From an uncultured virus (IMG/VR IMGVR_UViG_3300027861_004723) (Duplodnaviria; Heunggongvirae; Uroviricota; Caudoviricetes), in IMG/VR virus record IMGVR_UViG_3300027861_004723: DNA of 46,900 nucleotides, one strand, 5' to 3'. The stretch's first letter is position 1, and each line of letters starts with the position of its first letter. The position numbers and the translations under genes were made by a program. The notes below the pieces were generated by a model. That model searched no databases, was not told the DNA's origin, and worked only from the letters and a program-made list of their open reading frames with translations. Of the stretch, positions 8,463 through 39,022 are shown in pieces.

Positions 8463-8863
8463 CTGCGTCCCTTGACAGGAAATTGAGAGCAGACTACAAT
8501 GCTCTCAACAACGAAACGAAGCTGGTACTTAAGGTGTGATAGCTAAACGGCAATCAAAAGGTTGCCCATGATTCGGACCCGAATTGGAGAATTGCGAAAC
8601 CTCAAAAGGGTGGGAAGCCCTTAAAACATTGATTCGCCCTGCCCGTTGCTGGACCCAGCACGGGCTTAGGGTGATGCCGCTAATAGGTAATAAATAACAA
8701 CAACTACAAACATTTAATAAAGTAACAATTTTAGTTTAGTAATATGTCCCGACGCTCCTGCGGCCACCATGCCGTAAGGAGCTTAGGGCGATGTATAAGA
8801 AACGCTACCCGTTGACAGTAACCGGCTACCCGGTTAAGATGCAATCTCAACAGAGGGCACAAA

Positions 8864-9301
8864 ATGGCAACTCGTGAAGTAGTGCTTGTAGTGGAACAGA
8901 GCGTTCACTATTACATTGAAGACCCAGAGGGTACCTTGACCGAAGCAGAGGTCGTAGCAGCGGCTACGGAAAAGCTAGATAAAGGCGAGCCCGATGAGAA
9001 TCCAGCTAGCGGCTGGCTAAAGGTCACCTCCTGGGCGGTTTCGGGGGTTCCCTTGGACCCGACTGCAGCCAAGACCAGAATGTTAAGTCCAGCGGAACTA
9101 CTAATCTACTTTGAAAGACCGGGATGCAAGCCGTTCACGGAAAAAGAACTAGCCGAACGGTGGGATAACTGCTCGATCAAAACAATTCGGCGGAGAAGGT
9201 CGAGTGGTGAAATACGGTCTTTCAAGCCGGGTCGGGATGCTTTGTTCACTCTTGAAGCCGTCTACGAATACGAACAAAAGATGAGTGGAAACCCATTATG
9301 A
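8864..9301 (+). CDS. Protein with C-terminal excisionase-like (HTH_17/MerR-type) DNA-binding domain
   Basis: FTEKELAERWDNCSIKTIRRRRSSGEIRSFKPGRDALF pattern. Confidence 0.7.
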   Translation: MATREVVLVVEQSVHYYIEDPEGTLTEAEVVAAATEKLDKGEPDENPASGWLKVTSWAVSGVPLDPTAAKTRMLSPAELLIYFERPGCKPFTEKELAERWDNCSIKTIRRRRSSGEIRSFKPGRDALFTLEAVYEYEQKMSGNPL

Positions 9302-9883
9302 CTCAGGCGCAGGCGAAGCCGAGCCAGCCAGTAGTGATAGCCGCAGGCGTTTTTCAAGCCTTTCAGGATTGCATAAAACGCTAGAGGACTAAGATGATTG
9401 CCAAAGAGTGAACAATGAGCACTAATGCCATTATTGCGCTAACAAAGCTAGAAGACGTTTTTCGTCGGTGCTCGGCCACTATTTTGGCGTCTAATGACGT
9501 TGCTATCTTGCTCGTGAGCGTTTATGAGGAAGCCGGTTACGAGGTTCCTGATCGCTTAGTGCAGGAAGCCGACAAATACAACAGCAGTGATAACAGGTAG
9601 GAGCGGAGAATATGATTCACGTTTATTTCACTGACGGAACCGAAAGTATCCACAATACCGTGCAAGAAGCGCAGCAAAATGTGGAAGAAACCATCCTGGG
9701 CTGTGATTTTGCGGTTAGTGTCGAGCAAATTTGCGACGATAATGGCCGTAACTACGCCTGCAACTGGTCGGTAGCTGTTACCCTGGAGTAGCCGCTATCC
9801 CTTGACAGCAACAAACAACAAACATAGAATACACTCTCAACCAACAACGGACACGACGCGGATAACCGCAGCAAGAGAAAACA

Positions 9884-10156
9884 ATGGGTAAGAGCACGAG
9901 TAGCGAAACTAAGGTCAAGCGAGGGCCGGATTTGACCTTGCAAAAGGTCCGCAAGGCGCGGCGCTGCCTCCAAAGCGCGGGTCGTCGCGGCCTTGAGGCG
10001 TTCCTGGGCCACAACCCCGACGTTAAGTCGAACAAGGTCGTGGTGTCCCTTACCAAGCGTGCGGAAGCGTTGCCCGTTCGCCCGCCCAAGGGTAAGCGCG
10101 GCCCCAAGCAGCCCTCCCAGCGGAGCAGCCCCGAGGAGCAGCCTGTTAGCGCATAG
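9884..10156 (+). CDS. Small basic hypothetical protein
   Basis: Promoter 9802-9830; GC3-rich coding pattern. Confidence 0.7.
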   Translation: MGKSTSSETKVKRGPDLTLQKVRKARRCLQSAGRRGLEAFLGHNPDVKSNKVVVSLTKRAEALPVRPPKGKRGPKQPSQRSSPEEQPVSA

Positions 10157-10303
10157 CGCAAGCTAGGAAAACCCACAGAGCCGCCTAACACCCACGGTCG
10201 ATAGGGCGTTGTTAGGCTACGCGAAGCATAACAGTGAAAACAGCAGCATTAAGTTGGCGAAAGACTGTTAGGCGGCTCGCCACAAAACATAGAAACGGCA
10301 ACC

Positions 10304-10814: not shown

Positions 10815-11051
10815 ATGCCCCAAGTACGTAAAACTGTTATCACTTTGACGGTGCTATCAGCCGCCGATGCTGACGCCCCTGATCCTGCCTATAGCAGTCT
10901 TGAAGAAATCACTCAACAGATGGATACAGGCTGTTTCCTGGGTGATTGGATTGCACAAAGTAGTAGCATCCTCCCGGCTGATAAAGTCGAGAATGAGTGC
11001 GTCAAGCTGGGAAACGATGGTAGTTTCTTTGATCTTGACGATGAGGACTAG
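10815..11051 (+). CDS. Hypothetical acidic protein
   Basis: GAGG SD; ends at promoter. Confidence 0.7.
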   Translation: MPQVRKTVITLTVLSAADADAPDPAYSSLEEITQQMDTGCFLGDWIAQSSSILPADKVENECVKLGNDGSFFDLDDED

Positions 11052-11091
11052 CATCCCTTGACAGCAATGAGCTTCTTGGTAGGATGATTTT

Positions 11092-11163
11092 TCAGCCCTA
11101 GCTCAATAGTAGAGCAGCTCCCTGTTAAGGAGATGGTTCCGAGTGCAAATCTCGGGGGCTGAG
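11092..11163 (+). tRNA. tRNA-Asn(GTT)
   Basis: Acceptor TCAGCCC/GGGCTGA, D arm GCTC/GAGC, loop CTGTTAA, T arm CCGAG-TGCAAAT-CTCGG; CCA not encoded. Confidence 0.85.
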
Positions 11164-11172
11164 TGAAAACAA

Positions 11173-11310
11173 GTTTCTGCCTGGGCGTTGTGCCCTAAAT
11201 AGAGGGATGACACTAACGGGTTGGGGACGTGGAGGAAAAGCGGGTGTCTGTAAAACAATACCGCTATAACAAAGCGTTGCAGGGGGCATCATACCCTGCC
11301 AGAAACACCA
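11173..11310 (+). ncRNA. Enlarged tRNA-Tyr-like RNA (138 nt) with expanded D domain
   Basis: Acceptor GTTTCTG/CAGAAAC + ACCA, loop CTGTAAA on an extended stem, T-like arm GCAGGG/CCCTGC. Confidence 0.6.
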
Positions 11311-11489
11311 TACAACTTGGGGGACTATGAGCAATCCTGATATGCAGCAAAAGCTACTGGCCGCGCAGGAGCTACTGCAAGACGATCTAATCACGTTTCT
11401 GGATGGGTTGCCTTCGGACACTGTTACTCACGCTTGTGGTCTAGTTATTGAGAGGTTTAAGCCTCTTTTTGACGAATCGAGCGGCATGA

Positions 11490-15599: not shown

Positions 15600-15884
15600 A
15601 TGACATTGAAGAAGCAACGTATGCGCTTGGGGAAAACAATCCGCCAAGCTACAGGAATCCCTTTTAGGGAGGCTATCATTCTTGCAAAGATGGTAGTTGC
15701 TGGATGCACCCTGGAAAACTTGTATTCGGAGAGTATCCAGCTTGGCTCCTTTGAGTCTTTTGGCACTACCCAAGTCTCTGATACCAAGATAGATGCGTTG
15801 GGCCGGGTAGAGGTTGCTATTGGGCCTGACGGCTGTTTTTGGGACGGGCGGATTGTTGGTCCGCGAGGAGTTTACAATGGGTGA
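15600..15884 (+). CDS. Hypothetical protein (leaderless); resembles 24598..24831
   Basis: ATG 6 nt after the -10; LGKTIRQATGIP vs LAKTIRSETGVP, both ending in GPRG. Confidence 0.7.
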   Translation: MTLKKQRMRLGKTIRQATGIPFREAIILAKMVVAGCTLENLYSESIQLGSFESFGTTQVSDTKIDALGRVEVAIGPDGCFWDGRIVGPRGVYNG

Positions 15885-17576: not shown

Positions 17577-17648
17577 CAGCAATGCTATGCTGATCTGCAT
17601 ATCTTTACAGATCAGCAATGCTATGCTGATCTGCATATCTTTACAGAT
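17577..17648. repeat. Exact 36-bp tandem duplication
   Basis: CAGCAATGCTATGCTGATCTGCATATCTTTACAGAT x2, spanning a stop codon and a -35 box. Confidence 0.95.
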
Positions 17649-17682: not shown

Positions 17683-17753
17683 CGCGCAGAAGTCTACGAG
17701 TACGACGCTGGCCTCATAAACCAGAGAATCGGGTGCGACTCCCGGCTGCGCTA
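17683..17753 (+). tRNA. tRNA-Met(CAT), divergent, initiator-like 1:72 mismatch
   Basis: Acceptor CGCGCAG/CTGCGCT, D GTC/GAC, loop CTCATAA, T arm TCGGG-TGCGACT-CCCGG; own promoter 17640-17668; no CCA. Confidence 0.7.
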
Positions 17754-18829: not shown

Positions 18830-19219
18830 ATGACCTGGTGGACAAAGAAAACAGTAAAAGAATTGGAAGAAGTGGTTGGGTATCACATTGATACTTGTCC
18901 CGAGTGCCAGCGGTGCCTAGAAAGCCCGCCGCCCGACGATGATGACAATGATGAGCCCTACTTTTGCCCGGAAGGCGAGGAGCTAGTAGAGGAGTTTTCT
19001 GATGCTGAAACCTACTATTCTTGGCAACACAGTTTCCCAGGAAATGATCCTAACTACTCCGAGTTTTGTCCGTGCAATTCTTGTTTCATCCAAACAATGA
19101 CACGTTCGATTGATCCTGCTAATTCCAAACTGGAGAAGCGTATCAAGCGTATCAAGGGGCTCAAGAAAAGAAACAAGCAGCGAAACAAGAAGAACAAGAA
19201 AACCAAAAAGAAAACTTGA
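18830..19219 (+). CDS. Cys-rich protein with Lys-rich C-terminal tail
   Basis: ORF composition. Confidence 0.7.
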   Translation: MTWWTKKTVKELEEVVGYHIDTCPECQRCLESPPPDDDDNDEPYFCPEGEELVEEFSDAETYYSWQHSFPGNDPNYSEFCPCNSCFIQTMTRSIDPANSKLEKRIKRIKGLKKRNKQRNKKNKKTKKKT

Positions 19220-19220
19220 T

Positions 19221-19526
19221 ATGACCACCATTTATTACAGCCCCGAAGACTACGGTTTGGAAGTAGTAGGACATCTGGAACAGCCGGATATGTCTTACGA
19301 GTTTCATATTCTCGGAGTCTGGAAAGACACGAAAACTGGTAGGATCTTTTGGGCAGAAGATAGTGGCTGTTCGTGCCCCATCCCTTTTGAGGATTTCCAT
19401 TTTCACAGTGCGGATGATACCAACCTAGACTCTGATATGGTAGCACTCCATGCGGAGATTTCTGATTTTCCTACAACGGAAAATGAGAAAGAGATGCTGT
19501 TGGGCTGGTTGGCAGAAAAGGGTTAG
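19221..19526 (+). CDS. Phage hypothetical protein (SYEF...DSGCSCP motif)
   Basis: Motif recalled from many phage hypotheticals. Confidence 0.75.
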   Translation: MTTIYYSPEDYGLEVVGHLEQPDMSYEFHILGVWKDTKTGRIFWAEDSGCSCPIPFEDFHFHSADDTNLDSDMVALHAEISDFPTTENEKEMLLGWLAEKG

Positions 19527-20539
19527 ATGAAATGCTGTTCTTACTGGCTAATACGGTCTGGTTGCTGCATAATCAATTTGTGGCTACGTTGCCGAGCTAG
19601 CACAGAGCGTGCTCACTATATTTTCTCCCCCAAAGCAGGGCGGTTCCAACTCTGGTTTAGTTTCGCTCCCGAGAATCCTAAAAAAGATAGCCGAAGAAAA
19701 CTACGTTTGATTGCGTGATAGGCCATGACCCTTGACAGGAACCACGCTCTAGGTTACGATCTACAGCAGACAAGGGGAGGGCATTATGCCTCGCATTGAT
19801 TTCAGCTTCCGTGGACACGTCAATGGTGCTCTGGTGACAGAGGCTACTGACGAGAGCGGTAACATTGTAGATGTCAGCAAGATGTCTCCTACCCTGCTCA
19901 CGCTAAAGCTGAATAGTGGTGCTCTGTTTATCTCTCTGGGGGACCACCTTTACGAGAGTGACGATGCCGAGATTTGTCTGGAGGATTTCCAGGCTCCCTA
20001 CTCCAGAGTTCCCTTTTGCCCAGATAGCGCGTAGCATGGAAAAAACTGTTACTGTTGTCTCCAGCCCGCATGACATTGATACTGGTCTTCCCTGGGCCTA
20101 TAAGGAAGGCGCTTTTTGTGCCTGGGTCTGGGAGGTTTTTATAGGGGATCTAAACCGAGAATCACTTTGATCGAAGTACTAATCGTGGGCTGTACCATTT
20201 TTATCATTGCGGCTATTGCTATTGCGGGAGCGGCTGGATAACACTTGACAGGAATTGTGCTGTAGAGTAGAATCCCTGCATGACAATCAAGAAATGTGAA
20301 AGATGTGATGTAGAGGAGTCAGAGGACGAGGTGATTGCGCCTCTCAATGATCCCCGCAGCTACCTCAACGGCACTAACCTCTGTAGCTTTTGCCATCAAG
20401 AGCACTATGAGGATATGCAACACGCTCTCGACTGTGAAGATACCGACCGCAGGCACCGAGAAGCGCAGATTCGGGAATCGGTAGGTTTTAAGCCTGGTTG
20501 TGATTACAAAAGACTGTAAGCGAAAGCGCAGGAGTTGGT

Positions 20540-24187: not shown

Positions 24188-24306
24188 AGAATGGTGAGGT
24201 AATTTAGCAACCCTACTGGCGATCTGCTCTGCAAAGTAGTGAACTGGTGAGTTTTGATGATTGCAGCATTATCAAACTGTTGCGGGTGCAAGTCCCGTCC
24301 ATTCTC
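24188..24306 (+). ncRNA. Enlarged tRNA-Cys-like RNA (119 nt), double-length anticodon arm and ~11-bp variable arm
   Basis: Acceptor AGAATGG/CCATTCT, D GGT/ACC, loop CTGCAA(A), T arm GCGGG-TGCAAGT-CCCGT. Confidence 0.7.
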
Positions 24307-24859: not shown

Positions 24860-25001
24860 GATTGGATAGCTTAGTTGGCAGAGCGTCGAGACGTGCTCTA
24901 TCATGCGGAGAAAAGGTTGATGCGGCCACCACGCCATAGATACCAAATCTACAAAGATAGTAATAAATCTCGGAGGTAGGGTTCAAATCCCGTTCCAATC
25001 A
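24860..25001 (+). ncRNA. tRNA-scaffold RNA (142 nt), anticodon loop replaced by a ~77-nt domain
   Basis: Acceptor GATTGGA/TCCAATC, TAGCTTAGTTGGCAGAGC D arm, stem TCGAGA/TCTCGG, GGGTTCAAATCCC T arm. Confidence 0.75.
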
Positions 25002-25023
25002 CCTACACCTTGGAGTAATCTCG

Positions 25024-26331: not shown

Positions 26332-28572
26332 ACAGACTTACTGAGGATGAAATCGCAGAACATCACGCCACGTTGCGGATTGCGTGCGACCCTGATTCTC
26401 CTTTTCACGGCATGATTGATTTTAGTGACGGTTTACTGGCTTTGCCAGTTTCTCAGCAACACCAAATCTATAATGCTATGCCTGATGATCTGCGTAATAT
26501 GGTCGAAGGAAAGGGAAACTAAAAGGCTTCCCTTGACAGAAACAGCACGATGCTGTAAAATGAAAGTATGACTGAACAACGCAAAGACCTAGAAGACTCT
26601 GCTAATGCTCTCCGCTCTCGGTTAAACCAAATGGAAGGAAAGAGGGATCTTTCCGACCTAGAACGCCCTATTCACGAGGTTGGAGTGCTTGCTGTACGCG
26701 CCGAACTTACCAAGGTTGGCAGGAAGCTCGACCGCTTAGACCGCAGACACGGCTAGTAAACACTACACGAACACTACTCGAAAGAGAGGACAATATGAAG
26801 TTGTCTTGCTCCAAAGACCCTTCCCATAAAAAGTTTTCCGCGCAGGTCCACGAGGTTCGTGGCTGGATCGTAGACGAAAACGGCGATTGGGAGCGCAATG
26901 ACGACCAGGGCTGTCAGATGGTAGCCTCTGGACCGGATTTCTATAGTAGCGTCTGCATGGTCGAAGGCTGTGATGGGGAAACCGAGATTTCCGATGACGA
27001 TGACTGACTACTTGGAAGCTGTATGACAAGATCAAAACAATTTATGGAAAGCCTCAACAACCATCCCAGCATTGTGGAATCACTTTCTGGATTGGAGTTG
27101 CTTGACGGAGTTAGCATAGAAGCGACCCGACCGCTTAACAAGGGAATTGCATTCAAGCTATCTACAGGACAAGTAATCATCTTGAGGGTTTTCCTGGGGG
27201 AAAGCTGGGACAAGTTCGACCGTCATATGACCAAGATGCAAGAAATAAAGGACAGGCATAAGAAAGCATGAAATTCAAAACTCGTATCAGGCGTGATATT
27301 GAGAGTATTGACGCGGAAATGGTCTTGATGCTAGCATCGGACTGGGCTCCTAAAATCAAAAGTGCGGTAATATCAGGGCTCGAAGCTCAAAGATCAAAGC
27401 TGCTTGTGCATTTGATGGTTCACCAAAGGGCTGACGACGTTGAAGCATACCTAGACAGTAATCGTAACTAGGGTATGATCGAGTTGGGCGCTGATTGGAG
27501 TGATCCAGAGTTTGTAGCGATTAACGGCCCAAAGGGATGCGATTGTTCCGGCTGTGATTATTGCTCCGTGCATTGCGTTCCTGATTGTGCGAGCAATCAG
27601 GGCATGACGTGCGATGACGTTATCGAATAAAGAGGTAATCTGGTATGACCCCTTTTCAAGTTAGGGACGTTTCCCTGCCCGGTAATCCGGTTGGGGATGT
27701 TATCAGCATTGACTGGAAAACCGGGCTGATGGTTGTTCGTTATGAGCAGCATGGAACGCACCACAATGTTGATGTAAATTCGATCTTCATTGATATTATC
27801 CCCGCAACAGAGGCGGCTGATGAACCTTGATGAATACATCAAAGAACATGGTATCAAGGGGATCAGCACTCTAGTTAAAGAGCTTATACTAAAAGCACCC
27901 GAGTTTGGGGGGGATAAGGATTTAGCTAAAAAACTAGCTCTTGTGGTTACGGACCTTGAGTATGCTCTGGTGGTCTATAAAAACAAATCTGACAGTAATC
28001 AGAGGGCTGCTGGAGATGAGTGTCGTTGGGATGGATAAAGAGCACGAACATAAATGGTCTGAATGGGCACCAATGCGAAACATTGGAGTCCCTCCCTATA
28101 CCCCGGTTACTGGAGCAAAGTGTCGCTATTGTCGGATTTGTGATGAAACCGAAATTGAGGGAACGCCTGTAGAGCTACCTTGGGGTTATGCTCCCAAGCC
28201 TTTGTGGCTGGTAGCACTTGAGTTGGCTCTTGTAGGGCTTTTGGTCTATTACGTGTTTGCATGATTAAGAAGCAGGAGCTTAAAACAGCAGCTTTTCTAG
28301 TAGTGGCTGTCTTGCTGATTCTCCTGCCACTAATGTTTCGTTCTCCCTTTATGGATTTGCCTTACATACCGGACGCTCTGGAGATGGTTGAGCTAGCTAG
28401 TTATCCCGAATATCGGTGGGGGGTTGTACGCTGGGCTATTAGTACACAAACAGGGTTCTTAGTCATTGTTTGGATGCTTTTACAGTTGGTTGTTATGAGG
28501 AATAAGAATCGGGAGTCTTGACAGGAACCGGGCAGAGGAGTAAAATCGAGACAACACGAAGGGACGTAAAAC

Positions 28573-28791
28573 ATGGATCGCTGCGACGATTATCCGTGCT
28601 GTGGGCACGGACCTGCACCGCACGGGGATAATGGCGGCTGTCCTGACAGCGAGGGCCGTTTTAAGTGCGTTGAGTGTGGCCTCAAACTGCGTCGAGGTGC
28701 TTCCTCCGCTCTTTGCGGGGCCTGCCGACATAGTGGTTGCTGCCTGAGTTGCGGCCAGAACTTTCTGGACTGCTTCTGCGAGGATTACTAA
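28573..28791 (+). CDS. Cys-rich small protein (CDDYPCCGH)
   Basis: Promoter 28518-28546, SD; multiple CxxC. Confidence 0.75.
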   Translation: MDRCDDYPCCGHGPAPHGDNGGCPDSEGRFKCVECGLKLRRGASSALCGACRHSGCCLSCGQNFLDCFCEDY

Positions 28792-28927
28792 TGCTGGTAG
28801 ATCAAGCCGTGTACCTGATAACAACTTTTCCTGCTGAAACCTGTACTCTAGTAATAGTTCTTGTTGGGGGTTATATGGCGCGGATTATAGGAGCACTGGA
28901 TGACTTGGGTGATTTGGGAGGTAGTAG

Positions 28928-29344
28928 GTGACAACCTCAACACTGGAAACAATTATTCATAAGCTAGCTCGTGATCTTCCGATTGCTTATGTCAATTTGG
29001 TAGCTGCTGCCTGTGGAGAACCTTTTGATCCAGAGGATGAAATACCTGATATTGAGGTATCCGTAGAATTTACGCCTGGATGGTTTACTCCTGGGCGTTT
29101 GTCTGGGCCACCAGAAAACTGCTACCCTGATGAGGGGGAATCCCCGGAAATTATCAAGGTTACTATCCTTGAGGGCGATCACGACATTACTGCTGATTGC
29201 ACCCCGGAAGAAATTCAAAGGCTGGAAGATGAAGCCTGGGAAAGCCAGCAAGAATCAGACGATGATTATTATCCCGATGATCGGGATGACTATCAGGATG
29301 ATGACTATCAGGAACAGGATTATGATTGTTATGGGCCGTGTTAG
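28928..29344 (+). CDS. Highly acidic protein (GPPENCYPDE motif)
   Basis: GGAGG SD, GTG start. Confidence 0.75.
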   Translation: MTTSTLETIIHKLARDLPIAYVNLVAAACGEPFDPEDEIPDIEVSVEFTPGWFTPGRLSGPPENCYPDEGESPEIIKVTILEGDHDITADCTPEEIQRLEDEAWESQQESDDDYYPDDRDDYQDDDYQEQDYDCYGPC

Positions 29345-29397
29345 CCCTATATCTTGACAGATCCGAGGTAAAAGATATAATTCTGAAAACAAAACAT

Positions 29398-29431
29398 GCC
29401 GCGTGAGGTCTTAGGACTGATCGTGGCTCCA
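29398..29431 (+). ncRNA. Minihelix ending in UCCA
   Basis: GCCGCG/CGTGGC + TCCA with inner GGTC/GACT hairpin; first unit after promoter 29354-29381. Confidence 0.4.
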
Positions 29432-29436
29432 AACAT

Positions 29437-29625
29437 GGGAATCTAGCTCAAGAGAGAGGTACCATCTCAGCGGTAGACAAAACCCCTAAAGCTACGGGGC
29501 TAGTCGTGTAAAGGCCCTCGCAACCCTTCCCGGTACAAGGAAAATAGGTTGCGTATTAGCCAATACAGCCGAAGCAGAGCAACCGGGTAACCGGAAGGCT
29601 CCGGGTGCAAATCCTGGGGTTCCCT
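29437..29625 (+). ncRNA. tRNA-scaffold RNA (189 nt): ~125-nt domain in the D loop, GTAA tetraloop instead of an anticodon loop
   Basis: Acceptor GGGAATC/GGTTCCC, TA-GCTC...GAGC D stem, CCGG-GTAA-CCGG, T arm CCGGG-TGCAAAT-CCTGG. Confidence 0.8.
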
Positions 29626-29633
29626 TCCTACAT

Positions 29634-29717
29634 GCGAGGCCAGAAGATAATCAGAACCTAATGGGCAACAGTTTACTGTTCGCAGCGGTTTATCTTTTGG
29701 GAGTACTCCTCGCGCCA
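29634..29717 (+). ncRNA. Structured RNA ending in GCCA
   Basis: GCGAGG/CCTCGC + GCCA enclosing the CCAGAAGATAA/TTATCTTTTGG stem. Confidence 0.5.
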
Positions 29718-29744
29718 TACAAACAATGAAGCGGGAGGTGCTTT

Positions 29745-30077
29745 ATGACACTTAAAGAAGGTGCTGTTACTGCGGGAGCGGGCGCTTTAATTCTTGTAGT
29801 CCTCTTTTTTATGGCTTTTGGTATTAAGGGCTGTGCTGGGCAAAGCGGATTCTTTAGTAGATGGACGGGGGTTGCTGTTAAGTTGCCTGTCCCAGAAGAC
29901 TGCGTAAGGATTATCAACTTTAGCAAGACCGGGGAAACCAAACTGCTGAGTTATATCAATGACAAAGGCGAAGCGGTAATGCACGAATACAGCGATCATG
30001 GTGTGCTGGAAGCCACCTATAAGATTGATGGTGCTAGCTTCAATGCTGATTTGACGAGGCAACCGGCCAACAAATGA
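29745..30077 (+). CDS. Membrane-anchored or lipoprotein-like hypothetical protein
   Basis: GGAGG SD; hydrophobic N-terminus followed by KGC. Confidence 0.75.
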   Translation: MTLKEGAVTAGAGALILVVLFFMAFGIKGCAGQSGFFSRWTGVAVKLPVPEDCVRIINFSKTGETKLLSYINDKGEAVMHEYSDHGVLEATYKIDGASFNADLTRQPANK

Positions 30078-30365
30078 CTTACGCATGATTTCACACGATA
30101 TGGTACAAGCTGCGGAGGAACTAGCAAGAGACCTAAAGTTTGCTAAAGACTCCTGTTACAAGGTAACGGATTCCAGCTTGGAAAAGCCCTTGAAAATCCC
30201 CAGCAATGTTGCTAGAAAACTAGCCAAACCGTTTGGTAATCCCGGCATTTTGTATAGGTGCTCTGGATGTCCTGAGTGGCATATCAGAAACTCTGGGCTA
30301 CCAGATGGCGTAACTCGTCAAGGTTTTATTGCGTTGATGAAACTGATTAGAGCTTAGGAGGATTT

Positions 30366-30779
30366 ATGGGCACAACAACATTGGAAAACTGGAGAGAGGT
30401 TGATTGGGACTTGCTTGATATTCCCCAGCTTGAGTGTATTCAAGCTAAGTTGCTGCGAGAGCGCAGAAAGCTGCAAAAACAAAAAGATAAGGCCCCGCGT
30501 CAGAGGGGCCTTCGTCTGAAGAAACGTCTGGGTACGAACAGGAAACAGCTACAAGGCGTTATCAGCCGTATTTCTAGACATCGTAAAAAGGGTGATCTTC
30601 CTTTTGTCTATAAGAAAGCATTGTGTTTGGCCCTAGCCAGGGGAGAGTTTCCTGATGAGGTTAGGGACTTGTTGGTAAGGGCTAAAAAAGCAAGTAATTC
30701 TAAAATAGATGGCTGGCTTCACGACTTTGTGGAGTATTCCAAACGAAATAACCCAAAACCCTCGGAGGACGAGGATTAA
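30366..30779 (+). CDS. Basic coiled-coil hypothetical protein
   Basis: AGGAGG SD. Confidence 0.75.
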   Translation: MGTTTLENWREVDWDLLDIPQLECIQAKLLRERRKLQKQKDKAPRQRGLRLKKRLGTNRKQLQGVISRISRHRKKGDLPFVYKKALCLALARGEFPDEVRDLLVRAKKASNSKIDGWLHDFVEYSKRNNPKPSEDED

Positions 30780-30780
30780 A

Positions 30781-31097
30781 ATCATGGTCGGTGAGTGAGC
30801 AATCTCTTTCTAGCTCTTGTGAGATACTATTCCGCAGTGGTATCAGTCACGAGAGGCGTAGGCTAAGATAGAAGCATGTGCTTCAGCGTTTTACCTACTT
30901 ATTCCTTCGTAAAATAGCAACAGCAGGATTACCTCCTTTCTTTGCTTGAACGTAGAATAGGGCTCACCAATAGAAGCAAGGGGCTTAGAGTTTAGAGCGG
31001 TTAATAGTTTTTACATTCCTGCCAATGGGCAGATTTGGAACAGGCTATAGCTAAAACAACTAAACTCAGCCCCAGGCTTCGCCTTTACATCGGTGGT
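30781..31097 (+). ncRNA. Candidate ~320-nt structured RNA containing a 16S-3'-end-like anti-SD tract
   Basis: No convincing ORF; stems TCTTGTGA/TCACGAGA, TTGCTT/AAGCAA, GGGGCT(TA)GAGTTTAG/CTAAACTCAGCCCC; GGATTACCTCCTTTCT at 30926-30941. Confidence 0.5.
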
Positions 31098-31102
31098 AAT
31101 AA

Positions 31103-31267
31103 ATGACTGATAATGAACAACTACGAGCCTGGCTCGACAAAGAAAACTGTGATATGGATGCTGTTCGTCGGGCAGTTGAACTGTTGGTAGAAAAACATAA
31201 TCATAGATACCTGCTAAATAAGAAACTTGGAAACCAGCAAGTAGCAGAGAAACTCGGGGAAATTTAG
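31103..31267 (+). CDS. 54-aa hypothetical protein (below the ORF-track cutoff)
   Basis: MTDNEQLRAWLDKENC...; GGTGG SD; abuts the next ATG. Confidence 0.6.
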   Translation: MTDNEQLRAWLDKENCDMDAVRRAVELLVEKHNHRYLLNKKLGNQQVAEKLGEI

Positions 31268-31711
31268 ATGTTTCAAAAAATGTTAAATGATCTTCGGGAG
31301 AGGCGGGCAGACGCCAAATGCGAAGGGCAAACCATCTATTGTCGAGTTTGTGGGCTAGAAGCTCGCTCATTTGATTACTTTGATGATTCTAAACCCTCAC
31401 CCGAACAAACCTGTTATCATTGTTCAGATATGATTAGCAAAGGTTTTAATCCTGAAACAGAGAGCTTTCCTGATTCATGGTTTACCACTAATGGAACAAT
31501 CGAGTTTTCCCAAACACTTACTGGGGAGCAGGCTACAGCCTTTGAAGCTCTGCTAAGAATTGAGTGCAGGCAGGATAGGACCAGCCGAGCCCAAGCCAAG
31601 GAGGGTTCTGGTAATTGTGGTTATCAGTGGTGTAGGGCTAGAGAGCAGCTAAAAGCTGCCTTTGGCGTGGTGGCACCGGCACCCATTGACAGTAGTGGGG
31701 ATCAAGGGTAG
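31268..31711 (+). CDS. Zn-binding hypothetical protein
   Basis: CxxC pairs; C-terminus runs through the promoter at 31686. Confidence 0.7.
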   Translation: MFQKMLNDLRERRADAKCEGQTIYCRVCGLEARSFDYFDDSKPSPEQTCYHCSDMISKGFNPETESFPDSWFTTNGTIEFSQTLTGEQATAFEALLRIECRQDRTSRAQAKEGSGNCGYQWCRAREQLKAAFGVVAPAPIDSSGDQG

Positions 31712-31751
31712 ACTGCTATCTCACGACGGATCAAAGAGAAAAGAGGGTTAC

Positions 31752-32156
31752 ATGGGTTACTGCATGAGCCAGTGCGAGTCAGATTTTTTCGTTCCCGCCG
31801 ATAAGCTGGGCGCGATGGTTGCGGCTATTCAAGCCCTTCACGGCGAGGAAACCATTGGAGACAGTAGCGGACGGCACTTCTCCTGGGTGCCGCAGAATTT
31901 CCACACCATCTCTGATCCAGTCGAGTCTTTGCGGGCGTGGCGCTGGGACGCTGAATTGGACGACGAGGGCAACATCAATGTTCTTTACTTTGGTGGGGAA
32001 AAGGTGGGAGACGAAGACACTTTGTTCTCCGCTATCGCCCCTTTCGTTAAGGCGGGTTCCTACATTGAGATGCAGGGTGAGGAAGGGGAGCGTTGGCGCT
32101 GGCTCTTTGACGGGCAGGAGATGACCGAAAAGAGTGCTACTATTACTTGGGATTAG
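31752..32156 (+). CDS. Conserved phage hypothetical protein (MGY...GEK...IAPFV..GSYIEMQGEEGERWRW)
   Basis: Promoter, GAGG SD, recalled motif. Confidence 0.8.
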   Translation: MGYCMSQCESDFFVPADKLGAMVAAIQALHGEETIGDSSGRHFSWVPQNFHTISDPVESLRAWRWDAELDDEGNINVLYFGGEKVGDEDTLFSAIAPFVKAGSYIEMQGEEGERWRWLFDGQEMTEKSATITWD

Positions 32157-33059
32157 CCTTGACAGTAAGAATTGGAAAGGCTAACATCAGGTTTCCTATG
32201 AGGGGAACATAACATGGACGCACTCTGCAATTCACAAACACAAGAATCTAAAGAAACAACAGAGGCCCAGTCTGCATCCTGGCGAGAAGCCCAGGACGCT
32301 CTAGGTGACTGGCCGGGTTGGGAGTAACTATGGCTTTTTTTGACGTTGACGTTGATGAAACCCGCCACTATCGTATGCGCTACCGCATTGAAGCTGATAG
32401 CCCAGAACAGGCTATTCTTATGGCCGAGGAGGGCAACACTACCCAAGAGTGGGAGGATTCCTTTGAGGGGATTCTAAACCGTGGGGTGGATTCCGAAGTA
32501 ACCCCGATTCCAATGTTTTTTGCGGTAGAGTATGATCTGAGCTACTTTGGTGGCGACTATCATGGTTGTGGGGAAGATGTTTTTCTCCCTGCCGAGGGCC
32601 TGACAGACGAAAACCTACCAGAGAGGTTCCGAGAAAAGACCGGGCACGATCCAGTGCATATTGTTCATTACTGTTTTGACGAGCCAGTAGACGAATCCGG
32701 TGAATCATTAAATGGCTAAATGGACCGCCGCCCCTGATGGTTTGAGTGTTGCCCTTCTTACCACCGAGGAGGATGCAGCTTCTACTCAAGCGCGAGAAAA
32801 CAAAGACCCATCTTGGGCTTATTTCCACGTTGAGCTTGAACTTCTTAGCGATAATTCTGGCACTTGGGCCGCTCATCTAGGCGAACGAATTGGTGATAGG
32901 ATGTGGACTATCCTTAAAGGCGGGGGCTGCTGGTGGTGTGAGAATAAGCGCGATCTAGCAGCTAAGGAAAAGTCCAAGGTGAACCAGAGTTTGAACACCC
33001 ACATCCATTGACAGTAATCCCGTTCCGTGCTACCTTATGGGCAGTAAGAGGAGAGAAAC

Positions 33060-33518
33060 ATGGCGAACAACTATTATCAGGCAACCATGTTGCCCGACAG
33101 CATTAGCCTCAACCCGATGCATCAAGCCTATCTAGCAATGACCGGGGCTAGCTTGGATTCGGAGAGCGATGGTCGTTTCTACGTCTACTGGGAGGAATCT
33201 CTTTCTGAGGAGGTAGACGAGTGGGCTATTGACGACGCATTGGATGAGGGAACGATTACCCAGGAGTTTGCTGACTTTATCAAAAAGAACAACTTTAACG
33301 ATATGATGCGTCATATCTTGATGTATAACCCCGAGGTTACGCATCTTGAGATTTCTGGTGCTTGGACTTGTAGCAAGATGCGGCCCGGTGAGTTTGGTGG
33401 AGCAACTTGTATTGTTTCCCGCACTGAGCATCTTGATATGAACACGGGGTCAGCTTCCTTCAATAAGGAAACTGGTAAGATTGAAGTTAGGTTTAACATT
33501 AGGACTTTTGATGAGTAA
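33060..33518 (+). CDS. Conserved hypothetical protein (TCSKMRPGEFGGA motif)
   Basis: Sub-family C promoter at 33008, GAGGAG SD. Confidence 0.8.
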   Translation: MANNYYQATMLPDSISLNPMHQAYLAMTGASLDSESDGRFYVYWEESLSEEVDEWAIDDALDEGTITQEFADFIKKNNFNDMMRHILMYNPEVTHLEISGAWTCSKMRPGEFGGATCIVSRTEHLDMNTGSASFNKETGKIEVRFNIRTFDE

Positions 33519-34190
33519 CCCTCTGACCATAGTTCTCCACAAAGACCTAACCCCGCACCAAATCGCAACAAGTCTTCGTATTTTTGCCGGTATCATGGAA
33601 CAAAGTGATACTCAAGATGAGGCCCGTAAACAGCTAAAACTGTTGGCTGATATGATTGGGGAAACTCCTGCGGCGAAAAAGCTGTTAGACGAAATGAGTG
33701 CAGGAGAAAAGCAAAAGCGTAGAATCCTCATTTCCGACGAGGAAAGTGATAATATCAATCGGTTGGTAGAGCCCTTTGTTAAGGCAGAACGCCAGGTAAA
33801 TCACCACCCAACTACGGTTGGAATGACTGAGCGCGGAGTCGTTATCACCCTGCATGATGCCAGTAAGATTCTAGTTCGCACATATCAGCCAGGGGAGAAG
33901 ATCCCGCAAGGATAGAAATGAGAAACGTGAGTAAGCCGACTGCGGAGGATTACGCCGAAGCTGGTAAAAATCAGCCTAAGATTGTGGCCCAGGAGAACCC
34001 TCGCCCGATATTCCAAAAGAGCATTAGGCGGAAGGATCCAATCACCCGAAAACTTTCTAGGGTTCTAGTAGGAAAGCGCGTTCAGGGTTTTTACGATGCG
34101 GGTGGAAATCTGCGGGTGGAAATCTGAAGACACGACAAATGTTTGACAGACAAGTGGCTCTAAGAGGTCTTAGAGGCAGGAGGTGGTATC

Positions 34191-35345
34191 ATGCCCCTAA
34201 ATGTACAGAAGTATCTGCGTGATGGGGGCACCCTAGAGGGGCTTACTGAGGATCTTGGTATCCGCATCCATCATCATTCCGAGCTACCCCTTGTGGGATT
34301 TAGCTATAGCCAAATCGACAGCCCTAAGACGAACAACATCGTACGTGAGAGCCGGGGCCTTACTCTGGAAAAAGGCTCCTGGCGTATTGTCGCTAAGGCT
34401 TTCAACCGCTTCTTCCGTCTAGGAGAGTTTGCGGAGGAGTACGAAACTTTCAACTGGAGCGATTTTGATTGCTATACCAAGGCTGATGGTAGCCTAGTAT
34501 TGGTCTATAACTATCAGGGAAAGTGGTATGCCAAGACTCGTGGTAGTTTTGGAGGCGGCGAGGTTCCAAACAATCTGCCTGATTACTCCCCCAGTTTCAG
34601 TGAGTTGTTCTGGGACATCATGAAGGATAAGGGCATTGATCTTAGCAAGGTTTTGGATCCTGCTAACACCTATGTTTTCGAGATGTGCAGCAAGTTTAAC
34701 AAGGTTGTTCGGCTTTACGAAAAGCCTACTGCCTACCTACTTGCTGTTTTTAACAACGAGACTGCAAAGGAGCTTGCTCATGATTCCGTGGATACCCTTT
34801 CTGTGGAAGCTGGCCTGGATCGAGTGGAGCGATTCCACTTTACCTCTCTTGGGGAGGTCCAGGCTTATATGAAGCAGCAAGAGGATGCGGACCCCACTTA
34901 TGAGGGGGTTATCGTTTGCGACGACAAGCTGTTGCGCTTCAAGGTAAAGAGTATCACTTATGATGCCCTGCATCATATGTTTGATAACGGAAACATCTAT
35001 AACCCGAAGCGCCTTGTTCCTTGGGCTCTGAACCCTGATCCTAGCACTCTGCTAGAAACATACCCAGAGGTAAAGGAGCACCTTGATGCTGTTAAGGGCA
35101 AGGTAGACGAGTCTTACGACCAGCTACTAAAGGTCTGGAAAGAGCACCACAAGATTGAGGAGCAACGGACATTCGCCCAGGCTATTAAGGGCAAGACACC
35201 TTTCATGGGTCTACTGTTTGCCCTTCGTAAGAAGACTGGTATCCGAGGCCCTGGCGGGTTCGCCCCTGGCGAACAAACCGAGGAGCAGCTTTATACTCTT
35301 TGGCGTGATAGCGTGGACGGGATTGTTAAGGTTCTGTTCAAGTGA
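34191..35345 (+). CDS. T4 Rnl1-type RNA ligase
   Basis: RESRGL, FNRFF, motif I KADGS, FE, motif IV YEGVIV, motif V KVKSITY; AGGAGG SD. Confidence 0.9.
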   Translation: MPLNVQKYLRDGGTLEGLTEDLGIRIHHHSELPLVGFSYSQIDSPKTNNIVRESRGLTLEKGSWRIVAKAFNRFFRLGEFAEEYETFNWSDFDCYTKADGSLVLVYNYQGKWYAKTRGSFGGGEVPNNLPDYSPSFSELFWDIMKDKGIDLSKVLDPANTYVFEMCSKFNKVVRLYEKPTAYLLAVFNNETAKELAHDSVDTLSVEAGLDRVERFHFTSLGEVQAYMKQQEDADPTYEGVIVCDDKLLRFKVKSITYDALHHMFDNGNIYNPKRLVPWALNPDPSTLLETYPEVKEHLDAVKGKVDESYDQLLKVWKEHHKIEEQRTFAQAIKGKTPFMGLLFALRKKTGIRGPGGFAPGEQTEEQLYTLWRDSVDGIVKVLFK

Positions 35346-35798
35346 AACAAGTCCGTGACGAAATTGATAGCGCCCATAGTGATCCTATGGGCGCTATCGC
35401 TTCCGAGCATTGGTGTCCAGTGCTTAGTTACATAGTCTTGAATCCAGAACTAATGTCTCCTGATGTATGGCATCGGGCAGGGCGGTTTCTTGGTCATGGA
35501 GCGGGGTGGCCTTTTATCCCTGTAAGGTACGGCGTTCTCTTTACACTAATAGAAGATGAGGATAAGATATGAAAACCGGAATTATCAGTGACCACCCATA
35601 CTACAAAAAGTTGGTTGAAGCATTCATTGTGGAGAGGGGTCGTCCTCCCAATGACCTAGACAAATTGTCTCTGCAAAAGGATTTTGAAATCCAGCTTTTG
35701 ATTGGAATCCAGCAACGTCTTGACCGTATTGAAGATAGGATTATTAGGATTGAACCAAAATAAAACGGCCAACGAAAAAGCGATGAAGGGGATACCAG

Positions 35799-36040
35799 AT
35801 GGGTAGTGCTAGTGGACGATAGAATGCCCTAAGTGCGAGTATGCAGAAGCATATTCGGATAGTTATTACAAAGAGGGCTCCCTTTACATAGAGTGCCCCA
35901 AATGTCGATACAGCTATTCGCGAACTAGAATACTAGCTCCCGAGGGTAGCGAAGATTACTTTCTGGGCGACGGTAGCCAAGATGACCACTTTGAAATCGA
36001 AGAGGGTTATCGGTCTGAAAGTAAGGCTCTTGATCCTTAA
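35799..36040 (+). pseudogene. Frameshifted Zn-ribbon protein gene
   Basis: SD + ATG GGT AGT GCT AGT GGA stops at codon 8; the -1 frame continues IECPKC...YYK...CPKC to TAA 36040 and has no start of its own. Confidence 0.55.
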
Positions 36041-36063
36041 AACGGCTGTGATACTATTTCTGT

Positions 36064-36933
36064 ATGAAATATACAACCGTAAGAGAGTCCCGACTCGACA
36101 CCACCAAAAAGTTCGTTTTTAGCGTTAAAAATCAAGAAGTTGAGTTTAGCTACATACATAAAAACGATGGTAAAGACATCATCGTTTGCCCTACGCAGAC
36201 ATCCTGCAAAATGGGATGCACCTTTTGCTTCCTAACAGGAATGGATCTTCCTGTAGTCAATCTAACCGCAGAGGATATTGCTACTGGAGTGCAGGCTGTT
36301 GTAGAGAAAGCTGGGTTGCCAGAATCACCGGAATTGCTACTATCCTTTATGGGTGCTGGCGAGCCCCTACTAAACTATAAGCACGTAATAAACGGCTGCA
36401 AAAAGGTGTGCCAGACAGCGCAATCGCACGTCGGATATAAGACTCTGCGTTTCGCTATAGCGACTATGATTCCAAGCTCTGCTTTAATGCGAGGGTTTAC
36501 GGAGGCATCTAAGCTGTTTAATTTTAAGGTCCACTTATCATTGCATAGCCCCTTTGACGACGTTCGCCGCAAGATGATGCCGCAGGCTGTGCTGGTAAAA
36601 GAGAGCCTAGAGCTTCTGCGTGAGCATAAGGCTTATACAGGCCATGATATAGAGATTCATTACACTTTGATTGATGGGTTTAATGATAGAGACGAAGACC
36701 TTGAGAAATTGTTAAAACTTCTTGACGCTGATACTCCCATTAAGTTTCTCGATTTTAAGGCCAAGCCCGGAACAACAATGCGTAAATCTAGTCGTGTAGA
36801 TGAGTTTAGAGATGCACTAGAGAACGCGGGAATCATAACAGAGTTTTACAATCCCCCTGGATCTGATATTGGCAGTAGTTGCGGACAGTTTGAAAGAAAA
36901 GTGATTCCGCTGGCAAAAACTGCTGTATCTTGA
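36064..36933 (+). CDS. RlmN/Cfr-family radical SAM RNA methyltransferase, N-terminally truncated
   Basis: CKMGCTFC, FMGAGEP, LSLH, C-terminal DIGSSCGQ. Confidence 0.88.
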   Translation: MKYTTVRESRLDTTKKFVFSVKNQEVEFSYIHKNDGKDIIVCPTQTSCKMGCTFCFLTGMDLPVVNLTAEDIATGVQAVVEKAGLPESPELLLSFMGAGEPLLNYKHVINGCKKVCQTAQSHVGYKTLRFAIATMIPSSALMRGFTEASKLFNFKVHLSLHSPFDDVRRKMMPQAVLVKESLELLREHKAYTGHDIEIHYTLIDGFNDRDEDLEKLLKLLDADTPIKFLDFKAKPGTTMRKSSRVDEFRDALENAGIITEFYNPPGSDIGSSCGQFERKVIPLAKTAVS

Positions 36934-37964
36934 CAGAATAAGGGAATCGGTTATCATCATTCGCAATGAAGATTGAAAACTGGGGCGACGTTCCTGATGG
37001 AGCGAGGGTTATTGAGGACACCTACAACGAGGTTTATACCATCTTTACCCGTAGAGGGCAAAAGTGGCTTAGGCAGACTGGTTGGTGTGGTGGAAGAAAT
37101 AATCCACCTATTCCCGAAAACAGTGAACGATTTATTGACTTTGAGCCTAATGCTTTTATGGATCAGCCTTGGTATAGGATTGACTAATGAAGTTTCGAGA
37201 CACTAATATCAGCCAAAGCAATCTTACTGATTTCCTTGATCGGATTCGTAAGGAAGAAATCACAGAGGAAGTTGCTCTTTGTGAGATTATTTCCCGGCGA
37301 GAGGGTTTGGAGCTAACCTTGCTTGAGGCCGAGGAGCTACTTGCTAGGGCAGAGGACATTTATGTTCTGGAGGAGATGGCTGATAAGTATGACCAGCCGG
37401 ATTCTTCGGCTAAACCTTTGCTTGATACAATCAAAGAGGGCAGGGGTTGGGGTTGGTCCCCGGAAAAAGAGTCTGTAGGGTCTGGGTCTGGAGTTGGTAA
37501 ATGCTCTGACCCGGAGCATCCCCAGGATGATCACACCTGCCAGTGGCGGAAAAGTTGATATGAAACACAAACACGAAAACGACACCCGCGTTGAGTTTAT
37601 TCCTGATCCTCGCCGGGATGATCCCGAGGAGGGCCATACCGGCAAGGTGATTTACTACACCACCGATGGCTGGCATCGTCTTACGTGGGATGAGCCGAAT
37701 CCCAATCCTGATTTCTTCAACACCGAGCGCGTGTTCAAGCCAGAGCAGTTGAGGGCGCTGCGTAGAGTAATTGAGGCTACATCCACTATCATTGTTCACC
37801 CCCATCCTGGGGAGGGCGATGATGAGGCTATCAGCCGATTCCTTAGTGAGAACGGTGCTATTGAGTTCTTCGACGTTACTAATACGTGGGAGGAGTGGGA
37901 GTAAGCCTTGACAGGTTTCTGGAACTAAGGTAGCCTCTTAGGCATAGACCAACAGGAGCTAACC

Positions 37965-38351
37965 ATGCGCCGCAGCCAGAAAATTGAAAAGATCATCAAG
38001 GGTTTGCGCGAGCCTACTCCTGAGTCGGGTGTGGTGCGTGACGCAATCCTGCTTTTGCAGCGGGAGTTTGACAAATCCCATGCGGAGGAGTTTGAGCCCC
38101 GTGCGGGATGGGAATGTCCAGACCCAGAGCATGAGAAATGGTATGGGAAGCCCTATGAAGGCCCTACATCTCCTGATGGAGTTTGTGTTTACTACTCTCA
38201 GGCAGGCCGGGATGAGCACGCAGGAAAGCGTGTTGTTCGTCTAAAAATCGGAGCGGATTGGGTGATTCACCCTCTACCCGATGATCACGACGAGGGTGGT
38301 GAGAGCGAAGATTGGTGTGTCTTTTGTGGTCAGCCGGATGAGCGAAAGTAA
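37965..38351 (+). CDS. Hypothetical protein (CVFCGQPDERK C-terminus)
   Basis: Promoter at 37908, AGGAG SD. Confidence 0.75.
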   Translation: MRRSQKIEKIIKGLREPTPESGVVRDAILLLQREFDKSHAEEFEPRAGWECPDPEHEKWYGKPYEGPTSPDGVCVYYSQAGRDEHAGKRVVRLKIGADWVIHPLPDDHDEGGESEDWCVFCGQPDERK

Positions 38352-38678
38352 TGAGTAAAGAGAAACAGAAAACACCAAAGGCCCCTACGCCTAAAACACC
38401 AAAGCGTAAGCACAAGCATCCTGCGCGTGAAGACCCTAACGGGCCATTTGCGCCGCGAGCTACCACTAAAGACCTTGACGCAACTAAGTGCGTGGCTGCA
38501 CAACTAGGTGCTGTAGGTAATGAGCGCCAATGCGGAAGGGCTCGTGTTGATGGTGAGTGGTGCAAATGGCACGGACCTACCCACAGAGCCGAACAGAAAA
38601 CTTTGTCAGCTAACTCTGCGGCGTCTATTGACAGTGCCGCAAAAACAGGCTAAACTGGCCCTAACACGAAACAAAAGG

Positions 38679-39022
38679 AGGTAGTTACGAGCTTTGAACT
38701 TTGATCTTAGAGACAGGGATTAGTGCCCTGCGTGCTGATTATCCGAGGGTCGGATGGCAAGACGCCACTCTTAATAAGTGGTAACACTGGGTTCGATTCC
38801 CAGTCGGAACAAGTAATCAGTCCAGTGATTGAGAATATGTTATATTAAAGTTATTACTCAACACTGTTAGTTCTTGAAAGTATAAGATATTTACTACTAT
38901 GGACCTAGACTTGACCTAGACTTGCGGCCACCATGCCATTACGCCTAGCATAAAAGACTCCATAATAAATATAGAAATAAGAACTAAGCTCTAAGATCAA
39001 AGTTCAAGGCTCGAAACTACCT
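38679..39022 (+). ncRNA. ~345-nt multibranch RNA closed by a 34-bp inverted repeat, with an embedded tRNA-like (UAA) branch
   Basis: Arms 38679-38712 and 38989-39022 (32/34 Watson-Crick + one G-U); promoter 38628-38656; internal helices tile the interval. Confidence 0.75.
38740..38811 (+). tRNA. Degenerate tRNA-like domain, anticodon TAA, short variable loop
   Basis: D GTC/GAC, CCACT-CTTAATA-AGTGG, CTGGG-TTCGATT-CCCAG; acceptor only 5 bp (TCCGA/TCGGA). Confidence 0.55.

Follow-up and report, generated by a model that had tools for sequence, protein, structure and literature searches.

Why should a phage keep the same 15 nucleotides at three distant places in its non-coding DNA? The question is raised by a stretch of 46,900 nucleotides (nt) from the uncultured virus IMGVR_UViG_3300027861_004723 (hereafter the window), in which the 15-mer TGCGGCCACCAYGCC, degenerate at one pyrimidine position (Y), occurs exactly three times (Table 1). 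The window is part of a 66.9-kb contig from a seawater metagenome, and our reading covers 49 kb of this one genome, an early-type region of a large, undescribed phage. The original prediction, made from the sequence alone, held that the three copies lie on the + strand within non-coding, structured RNAs and represent one functional cargo displayed on several chassis. We tentatively favour, at less than even chances, the reading that the motif is a sequence-specific RNA hairpin docking one trans-acting factor.

The repetition of the 15-mer was compared with chance in two ways. Three copies stand against 0.11 expected, and none of 100 shuffled sequences reached three. As a look-elsewhere control, windows were simulated with a first-order Markov model and scored for any 15-mer present as an exact pair with a third copy at one mismatch at most. 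None of 300 simulated windows held such a triple, exact pairs alone being common (1.29 per simulation). The threefold occurrence on the + strand, outside coding sequence, is borne out. The real window contains 46 15-mers that form such triples. The other 45 all lie in TTGACAG promoter cassettes or in the TACCTTATGGGCAGTG leader family, which leaves the motif as the sole remaining repeated 15-mer family. Degenerate copies were not in excess: matches to the 14-mer core with up to three mismatches numbered 8 against 5.07 expected (13 of 100 shuffles reached 8), the five extra ones carrying two or three mismatches, which is chance level. Nor did the adjoining 2 kb on either contig side of this analysis add a copy.

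None of the three copies overlaps a + strand open reading frame (ORF); each stands in a gap of at least 400 nt between such frames. Gaps of this size account for 6.7% of the window, gaps of any length for 23.5%. Short ORFs running across the motif have no frame or start in common among the copies. Nearly all genes of the window are on the + strand, as are all 28 exact promoters of the form TTGACAG-N16-TANNNT found between 704 and 43364, where 0.11 would be expected. Early transcription is evidently driven by host sigma-70 from these promoters.

The 15-mer is 29/30 identical across the two other copies, and in the neighbouring sequence identity is at the random level. The stem, on both strands, and the loop described below are fixed, with sharp edges, and the only difference is one loop base (U or C). 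As judged by comparing the copies with their surroundings, this shows that the motif is under selection, the 15-mer being kept where the flanks are unrelated. Each copy can fold as GGC-CACCAY-GCC, as had been proposed. The GGC/GCC stem with an open CACCAY loop was predicted with a probability (P) of 0.75–1.0 in 11 of 12 native context lengths, the exception being copy 2 with flanks of +/-150 nt (P 0.08), and the loop itself was predicted to be unpaired with P 0.78–1.0 in 11 of the 12 contexts. The predicted hairpin follows largely from the motif's own sequence.

The carriers of the copies differ, as originally predicted. They are a terminator-type stem-loop, a transfer RNA (tRNA) frame and an AT-rich spacer. 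In each of them the motif stands at or near the centre of the carrier's inverted repeat, which fits the notion of one cargo on several chassis. Copy 1 forms the apex of an 11-bp hairpin, hairpin B, with the lower stem CCC/GGG, the upper stem GCUCC-UGCGGC/GCCGUA-(A)-GGAGC and the loop CACCAU; five of these base pairs lie outside the motif. Hairpin B belongs to a promoter-driven non-coding stretch of 311 nt that is folded well beyond shuffled sequences (z-score -4.7, 0/100). Its tail CTTAGGGYGATG recurs after the intergenic hairpins 7795-7832 and 8640-8676, whose tips are different, and its tail and promoter together are homologous to a cassette at 2656-2717 (alignment score 32). Since the members of this stem-loop family have the same tail and different tips, the tip at copy 1 looks swapped in.

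This arrangement resembles the promoter-early stem-loops (PeSLs) of T4-type phages, in which strong sigma-70-type early promoters are joined to intergenic stem-loops in AT-rich DNA, and many such repeats precede ORFan genes and are shuffled by recombination (Arbiol et al. 2010, PMC2839356). By the definition in that text, the copy-1 carrier combines what characterises a PeSL, namely a stable intergenic stem-loop and a strong sigma-70-type promoter, and given that its tail and promoter recur elsewhere it is a PeSL-like cassette with a different tip. Unlike the rest of the cassette, the invariant 15-mer is not accounted for by PeSLs as there described: they explain the carrier and the spread of modules. 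The phage is no recognisable T4 relative. Many TTGACAG promoters of the window likewise adjoin GC-rich stem-loops, in a PeSL-like architecture. PeSL cassettes of T4-type phages are reportedly also the subject of work by Comeau et al. from 2014.

Copy 2 lies in an RNA with a tRNA frame. It scores 34.5 bits against Rfam family RF00005, above the family threshold of 29 (E 7.5e-6, model positions 1-71, 78 inserted nt), and ARAGORN, with introns allowed and at its default threshold, calls it as tRNA-Tyr(ata) with a 69-nt intron. The whole-window tRNA scan does not report it. From its sequence, it has no readable anticodon loop and no U33-type 7-nt loop at either end of the insert, and its T stem consists of three G-C pairs and one non-standard or deleted position instead of a regular 5 bp. 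A paralogue upstream shares its T arm and 3′ trailer and, on the 5′ side, part of its insert; the 3′ ends align with a score of 19, and the paralogue shows an 11-column alignment gap opposite CCACCACGCCA, the motif core. This paralogue and two further tRNA-framed RNAs have inserts of 41-52 nt; one of them, at 43375-43517, begins directly after a promoter and folds with a z-score of -4.6.

The insert of the copy-2 carrier was also compared with catalogued elements. A group I intron, or another catalogued intron or ribozyme, was rejected: 24800-25060 matches nothing in Rfam but tRNA at E <=10, and the insert measures 69-78 nt, where group I introns have at least about 140 nt. No joint across the insert was found in the DNA contigs of four sequencing runs. 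A YrlA-type tRNA-like Y RNA (RF02553), a family in which the 5′ and 3′ ends pair into a Ro-binding helix, was likewise rejected, with no match window-wide at the gathering threshold or at E <=1, nor locally at E <=10. Lak megaphages have tRNA introns that are called 'enigmatic' (Devoto et al. 2019, PMC6784885). Like those introns, the inserts here are not of group I and lie in the anticodon loop of a phage tRNA body, and the genome has several genes of this kind (24188, 24860, 43196 and 43375). Unlike them, the exact motif and the longer module described below also stand in intergenic regions away from tRNAs, a situation not found described in the accessible parts of that paper. Beyond the copy-2 RNA, one of the few minus-strand genes (25042-25230) encodes a 63-aa product that looks like a small membrane protein. 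This gene converges on the copy-2 RNA, and read-through would give an RNA antisense to the motif.

Copy 3 stands in non-coding, promoter-driven DNA, where it follows a weak tRNA-Leu-like element. The sequence around it allows inverted repeats to be drawn, and the original prediction placed it at the tip of a long arm. The fold of this arm is not significant, being no better than that of shuffled sequences (z-scores -0.71 and -1.19).

Beyond the 15 nucleotides, two of the copies share a longer arrangement. In the regions of copies 2 and 3, the octamer TAATAAAT starts 40 nt after the start of the motif, and the 25-nt spacer between the two is only 6/25 identical. The chance of an 8-nt run at one common offset is 0.0019 per random pair of gap windows (0.19%). 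The octamer is over-represented in the window (5 occurrences against 1.43 expected; 1 of 100 shuffles), and three of its four + strand copies lie in motif-bearing gaps. Copy 1 has no such box at +40. A decayed copy of the module was detected upstream of copy 1: 8668-8721 aligns with 24914-24967 at a score of 23, where the maximum in 904 other windows was 14 and none of 2000 block shuffles reached 23. TAATAAA stands again 40 nt after its box 1 start, and the 15-mer is the part that has changed most (8/15, against about a quarter of the flanks). Read from these alignments, the 15-mer is box 1 of a two-box module of about 50 nt that was copied between non-coding regions, and it also stands alone at a hairpin tip. 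PeSL-type cassettes and tRNA-framed phage RNAs, the kinds to which the carriers belong, are both known; the new findings are the longer two-box module and the way in which the carriers of the three copies differ.

An RNA loop leaves the fixed spacing of the boxes unexplained, and a DNA-level signal therefore stays in play. In this alternative, the 15-mer and TAATAAAT 25 nt further on would form a two-box site acting on duplex or locally melted DNA. Candidates are a promoter for a phage polymerase or sigma factor, a regulator site for the next promoter and an origin-type element by AT-rich DNA, and the three sites, spaced at intervals of 14-16 kb, would drive or time a second transcription wave across the early region. 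We consider such a signal possible, and nearly as likely as an RNA docking hairpin. It would agree with the exact conservation of the sequence including the stem, with no compensatory change; with a box spacing that is fixed in three module copies where the spacer has diverged (copies 2 and 3); with the concentration of TAATAAAT in motif-bearing gaps; and with the placing of all 45 other triple-repeated 15-mers in promoter or leader cassettes. The next -10 box in region 3, TAAGAT at 38992, has lost its -35 box, as in activator-dependent promoters; the gene directly after copy 1 has a weak match to the DNA-binding domain HTH_17 (E 0.0026, below the Pfam cut-off); and stem-loops overlapping promoters are usual in PeSL cassettes (PMC2839356).

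Other features weigh against a DNA site. One copy stands midway within a tRNA-framed RNA gene, directed at that gene's own T arm. Copy 1 lacks box 2 at +40 and has complementary flanks, for which a DNA site has no need. The half-sites are poorly symmetric and the spacer CACCAY is invariant, the reverse of the pattern of a dimeric DNA-binding protein. We know of no sigma-70-family geometry that the gap of 25-27 nt would fit, and the 49 kb contain no recognised gene for a polymerase or a sigma factor. Few-copy phage promoters are the closest known counterpart on this side; they include the promoters of T7/Syn5-type single-subunit polymerases and the hairpin-type early promoters of N4, of which there are three copies. 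Like these, the motif is an exact sequence of 15-20 nt, present in few copies, intergenic and on the coding strand. Unlike them, it comes with no polymerase gene seen in the 49 kb and has no AT-rich or TATA part, which we take to be typical of T7-type promoters; host sigma-70 early transcription is evident, and one copy lies inside an RNA gene. A T4-type late promoter was rejected, ATAAATA not being enriched (5 against 4.81 expected).

The same alignments bear on the possibility that the motif has no function of its own. Its identity would then be a by-product of recombination that copies short intergenic DNA between stem-loop and promoter cassettes, by PeSL-type shuffling or short-patch gene conversion, and the insert in the tRNA frame would be one pasted piece. 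Region 1 does hold a true homologue of the region 2 module, shuffled cassettes are abundant in the window, PeSL cassettes mediate such shuffling (PMC2839356), and the population, clonal in four sequencing runs, gives no sign of purifying selection on the motif within populations. However, the 15-mer is kept where its surroundings have fallen to random-level identity, which makes a neutral relic unlikely: neutral decay would not leave one 15-nt block intact on three occasions. The decayed copy, moreover, has diverged most in the motif itself, which looks like replacement and not like drift.

The same genotype occurs nearly unchanged in DNA runs from at least eight studies; the 14 runs listed include none of RNA. 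Compared with 19100-39099, 182 of 202 pieces of contigs from four DNA runs were at least 99% identical, with no variants at the motif sites. As the population sampled in these four runs is clonal, the contigs give no comparative signal.

Docking of a factor by an RNA hairpin accommodates the same anatomy in another way. The 15-mer together with the following RUW would make an 18-nt RNA hairpin with the stem UGCGGC/GCCRUW and the six-base loop CACCAY, with which the phage would cap three early non-coding transcripts that are unrelated to one another. One and the same trans-acting factor would dock at all copies, the likeliest candidate being an RNA-binding protein of the phage or its host, and this factor would be tethered or titrated, or the RNA marked for processing, in the manner of operator/nut-type hairpins. 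All copies are sense to the 28 promoters, and each lies downstream of a promoter of its own. The complementary flanks of copy 1 extend its hairpin beyond the motif. Copy 2 sits at the exact centre of the anticodon-arm insert, a setting that makes sense only at the RNA level. Protein-bound operator hairpins show the same sequence conservation of the loop and of the stem on both sides, and the same sharp edges. The copies themselves, the selection on them, their sense orientation, their place in promoter-driven non-coding DNA and their carriers are shown. We infer the function of the motif from this anatomy alone, and its action as RNA, the binding of a protein and the consequences of that binding are all put forward tentatively.

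A number of results weigh against such a docking hairpin. No motif-sharing relatives were found, and there was no covariation to score. Base pairs enclosing the motif are unremarkable, the fraction of null sequences with at least the observed pairing being 0.19, 0.64 and 0.08. Folding shows no preference for the plus strand, the fold of the minus strand being equally good or better at copies 2 and 3, and the stem is invariant in sequence among the copies. The copy-2 insert is not significantly folded (z-score -0.41), nor is the arm of copy 3; of the three structured RNAs first proposed, the copy-1 hairpin and the tRNA frame of copy 2 thus stand, and these two folds do not. A hairpin tip does not explain why TAATAAAT keeps a constant distance of 25 nt at copies 2 and 3 and in the decayed module, and the other repeated motif families of the window are all transcription signals at the DNA level. 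Pfam recognised no RNA-binding protein among 107 ORFs (14 + 93), nor did PHROGs among seven neighbours that were searched in both. Absence of the motif from homologous RNAs had been named beforehand as telling against a functional cargo. It applies in part: the paralogue at 24188-24306 and the homologous sequence at 8668-8721 are both without it.

Operator-type hairpins offer the nearest parallel to a docking hairpin; examples are the lambda-type boxB and the coat-protein and translational operator hairpins. Like these, the motif is a hairpin of about 15-18 nt in which stem and loop are both fixed in sequence, with 2-3 copies per genome in early transcripts and one loop-base difference. Unlike in operator/nut-type hairpins, no boxA-like partner is common to the copies, one copy stands on a tRNA frame, no arginine-rich or other RNA-binding protein was identified in the ORFs searched, and the element has no Rfam match. 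To our knowledge, the six-base loop CACCAY is unlike the known loops of such hairpins. A lambda nut site has a 5-bp stem with a GNRA-like five-base loop, boxA a few nucleotides upstream and an N-type protein. A lambda-type nut site was rejected for the motif, whose loop has six bases and whose upstream flanks hold no common block; no N-type protein was recognised in the window.

The related idea of an 'aptamer on a scaffold', with one binding hairpin grafted onto a tRNA frame, a terminator-type stem-loop and a third RNA, we regard as doubtful. If it were true, stable early decoy RNAs would soak up one host factor, for instance an RNA-targeting defence protein or a processing enzyme, and large phages would use their tRNA-framed RNAs as frames on which binding modules are displayed and exchanged.

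The loop could also act by base pairing. As an antisense or kissing-loop seed, the open loop and the 3′ stem strand would pair with a host RNA, the three RNAs being sibling regulators or sponges; the complement of such a seed, GGCRUGGUGGCCGCA, contains AUG or GUG. The loop is predicted to be unpaired in nearly all contexts, the one variable base (U/C) could pair with a single target G, and separate promoter-driven RNAs that have a short identical stretch resemble sibling small RNAs. Against these points, the best target in the window (-25.9 kcal/mol, at 31657) lies inside an ORF and is matched or beaten by 4 of 30 shuffled motifs, there are no intrinsic terminator-like sites in the three regions, and a seed has no need for the conservation of both stem strands. 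The complement had been likened to the 5′ end of some tRNA genes. When two D-arm letters (AR) were added to it, 95 of 401 genomes of one bacterial class matched, a tally that includes two unpublished genomes (G143 and G310) with one match each; none of six matching loci that were inspected, a thin sample, lay in a tRNA gene. We consider a seed improbable, and give explanations that we have not thought of a similarly small share.

Two further suggestions of the original prediction found no footing. A mimic of the tRNA acceptor end (ACCA) was rejected: there is no acceptor partner strand on the + strand, ACCA lies in the loop and not at an end, and GGCCGCA occurs only as the motif's own complement and at two chance minus-strand sites. 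Likeness to clustered regularly interspaced short palindromic repeats (CRISPR) was searched for as two whole motif cores 38-66 nt apart in 185,579 catalogued species genomes. None of the 17 loci found is an array; all are GC-rich coding repeats or an insertion-sequence-like repeat. In one metagenome-assembled genome labelled Rhodobacter (G002), the 13-mer complement occurs 114 times, many copies being spaced by about 1 kb; there it is part of a high-copy repeat, probably insertion-sequence-like, that is unrelated to the phage.

Relatives of the phage were sought by DNA and protein. No DNA match to the window was found among 50,697 phage records, and the best protein matches to phage records were 37-45% identical. 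The 15-mer has at least 120 loci in IMG/VR; among the matches listed all are single, in unrelated and mostly GC-rich contexts with no flanks in common. The motif followed by N25 and TAATAAAT had no match in IMG/VR, and with N22-28 it matched, in the JGI metagenomes, the window's own 66.9-kb contig twice and one unrelated contig of 1,580 nt. The leader 20-mer and the tRNA-like 3′ 22-mer had no IMG/VR match either, nor were relatives of a neighbouring 359-aa protein found there. Two relatives by their RNA ligase (38-42% identical) contain no motif at up to two mismatches and consist of AT-rich, unrelated DNA. One of them (L122, ligase 38% identical) has a transfer-messenger RNA (tmRNA) gene at 10996-11308, about 3 kb downstream of the ligase and roughly where the window has the copy-3 non-coding stretch; no likeness in sequence was seen.

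Large phages carry many tRNA-shaped RNAs with unexplained inserts, and one such insert here has a selected motif and a module in common with intergenic regions. The 18-nt hairpin is thus a concrete handle on the role of inserts in tRNA frames. Should the motif bind a factor as RNA, there would be a link between tRNA-framed RNAs and the way in which operator hairpins and decoys work. Should it act as DNA, it would be a second-phase transcription signal of an undescribed marine phage lineage, and a tRNA-like gene could be hit by a regulatory cassette.

Table 1. Positions of the motif copies, their carriers, the module and other elements of the window.
Feature	Position	Strand	Description
Motif copy 1	8759..8773	+	TGCGGCCACCATGCC, exact match
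Motif copy 2	24921..24935	+	TGCGGCCACCACGCC, exact match to the Y-degenerate pattern
Motif copy 3	38923..38937	+	TGCGGCCACCATGCC, exact match
Promoter heading the copy-1 stretch	8472..8500	+	Sigma-70-type, TTGACA-17-TACAAT
Decayed module copy	8668..8722	+	84 nt upstream of copy 1; box 1 TGCCGCTAATAGGTA, 7/15 kept
Hairpin B	8748..8786	+	Motif copy 1 as apex; minimum free energy -26.7 kcal/mol, z-score -3.2, 2/200 shuffles
Tail and promoter after hairpin B	8812-8840 (promoter)		Tail CTTAGGGCGATG after hairpin B, then the promoter (10/12 match)
Paralogous tRNA-framed RNA	24188..24306	+	ARAGORN at -ps95; 670 nt upstream of the copy-2 carrier
tRNA-framed RNA (copy-2 carrier)	24860..25003	+	76-78-nt anticodon-loop insert, motif loop at insert centre
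Full module, region 2	24914..24968	+	GGTTGA, box 1, 25-nt spacer, box 2 TAATAAAT at 24961-24968
Promoter heading the copy-3 stretch	38628..38656	+	Sigma-70-type
tRNA-Leu-like element in the copy-3 stretch	38739-38812		Weak; in a promoter-driven non-coding stretch of ~345 nt, followed by copy 3
Box 2, region 3	38963..38970	+	TAATAAAT, +40 offset, as in region 2
Further tRNA-framed RNAs	43196-43312, 43375-43517		With anticodon-arm inserts
TACCTT-class promoters	4437, 12836, 16566, 24571, 33031, 45154		
Unusual T loops	11140-11150, 24286-24292, 29608-29616, 43286-43292		

The wider content of the window is that of an RNA-rich region. Besides several tRNA genes, Pfam recognised a tyrosyl-tRNA synthetase, an Rnl1-type RNA ligase, a second ligase-like protein, a radical-SAM protein and an HNH nuclease. 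The set of 93 ORFs gave two matches only, both to domains of unknown function, and the Rfam search of the window returned nothing but tRNA. The small proteins encoded at 24598-24831 and 15600-15884 have no match in Pfam or PHROGs; by eye, they have in common an N-terminal K/R-rich stretch followed by KTIRxxTG(V/I)P. In the tRNA and tRNA-like genes of the phage, the T loop is often TGCAAAT or TGCGAGC in place of the usual TTCRANY, with a G at the position of the expected U55.

Two more non-coding elements were seen. A promoter-driven stretch of 400 nt at 29345-29744 ends with a hairpin resembling a T arm and with a GGAAGG/CCTTCC helix. Nothing in Rfam matches this stretch, and its alignment with the tRNA-Asn gene region is weak (score 21). 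A weak tRNA at 17683-17753 (36.7 bits in Rfam, no ARAGORN call) is closely preceded by a perfect 36-nt tandem duplication at 17577-17648 that contains TTTACAG, a promoter-like box. In addition to the TTGACAG promoters, the window has a second promoter class, represented six times, in which the start region ATGGGCAGTGRAGG after a -10 box TACCTT does not vary. The conservation of the transcribed leader in this class suggests a shared 5′ RNA element or a fixed design of start and ribosome site.

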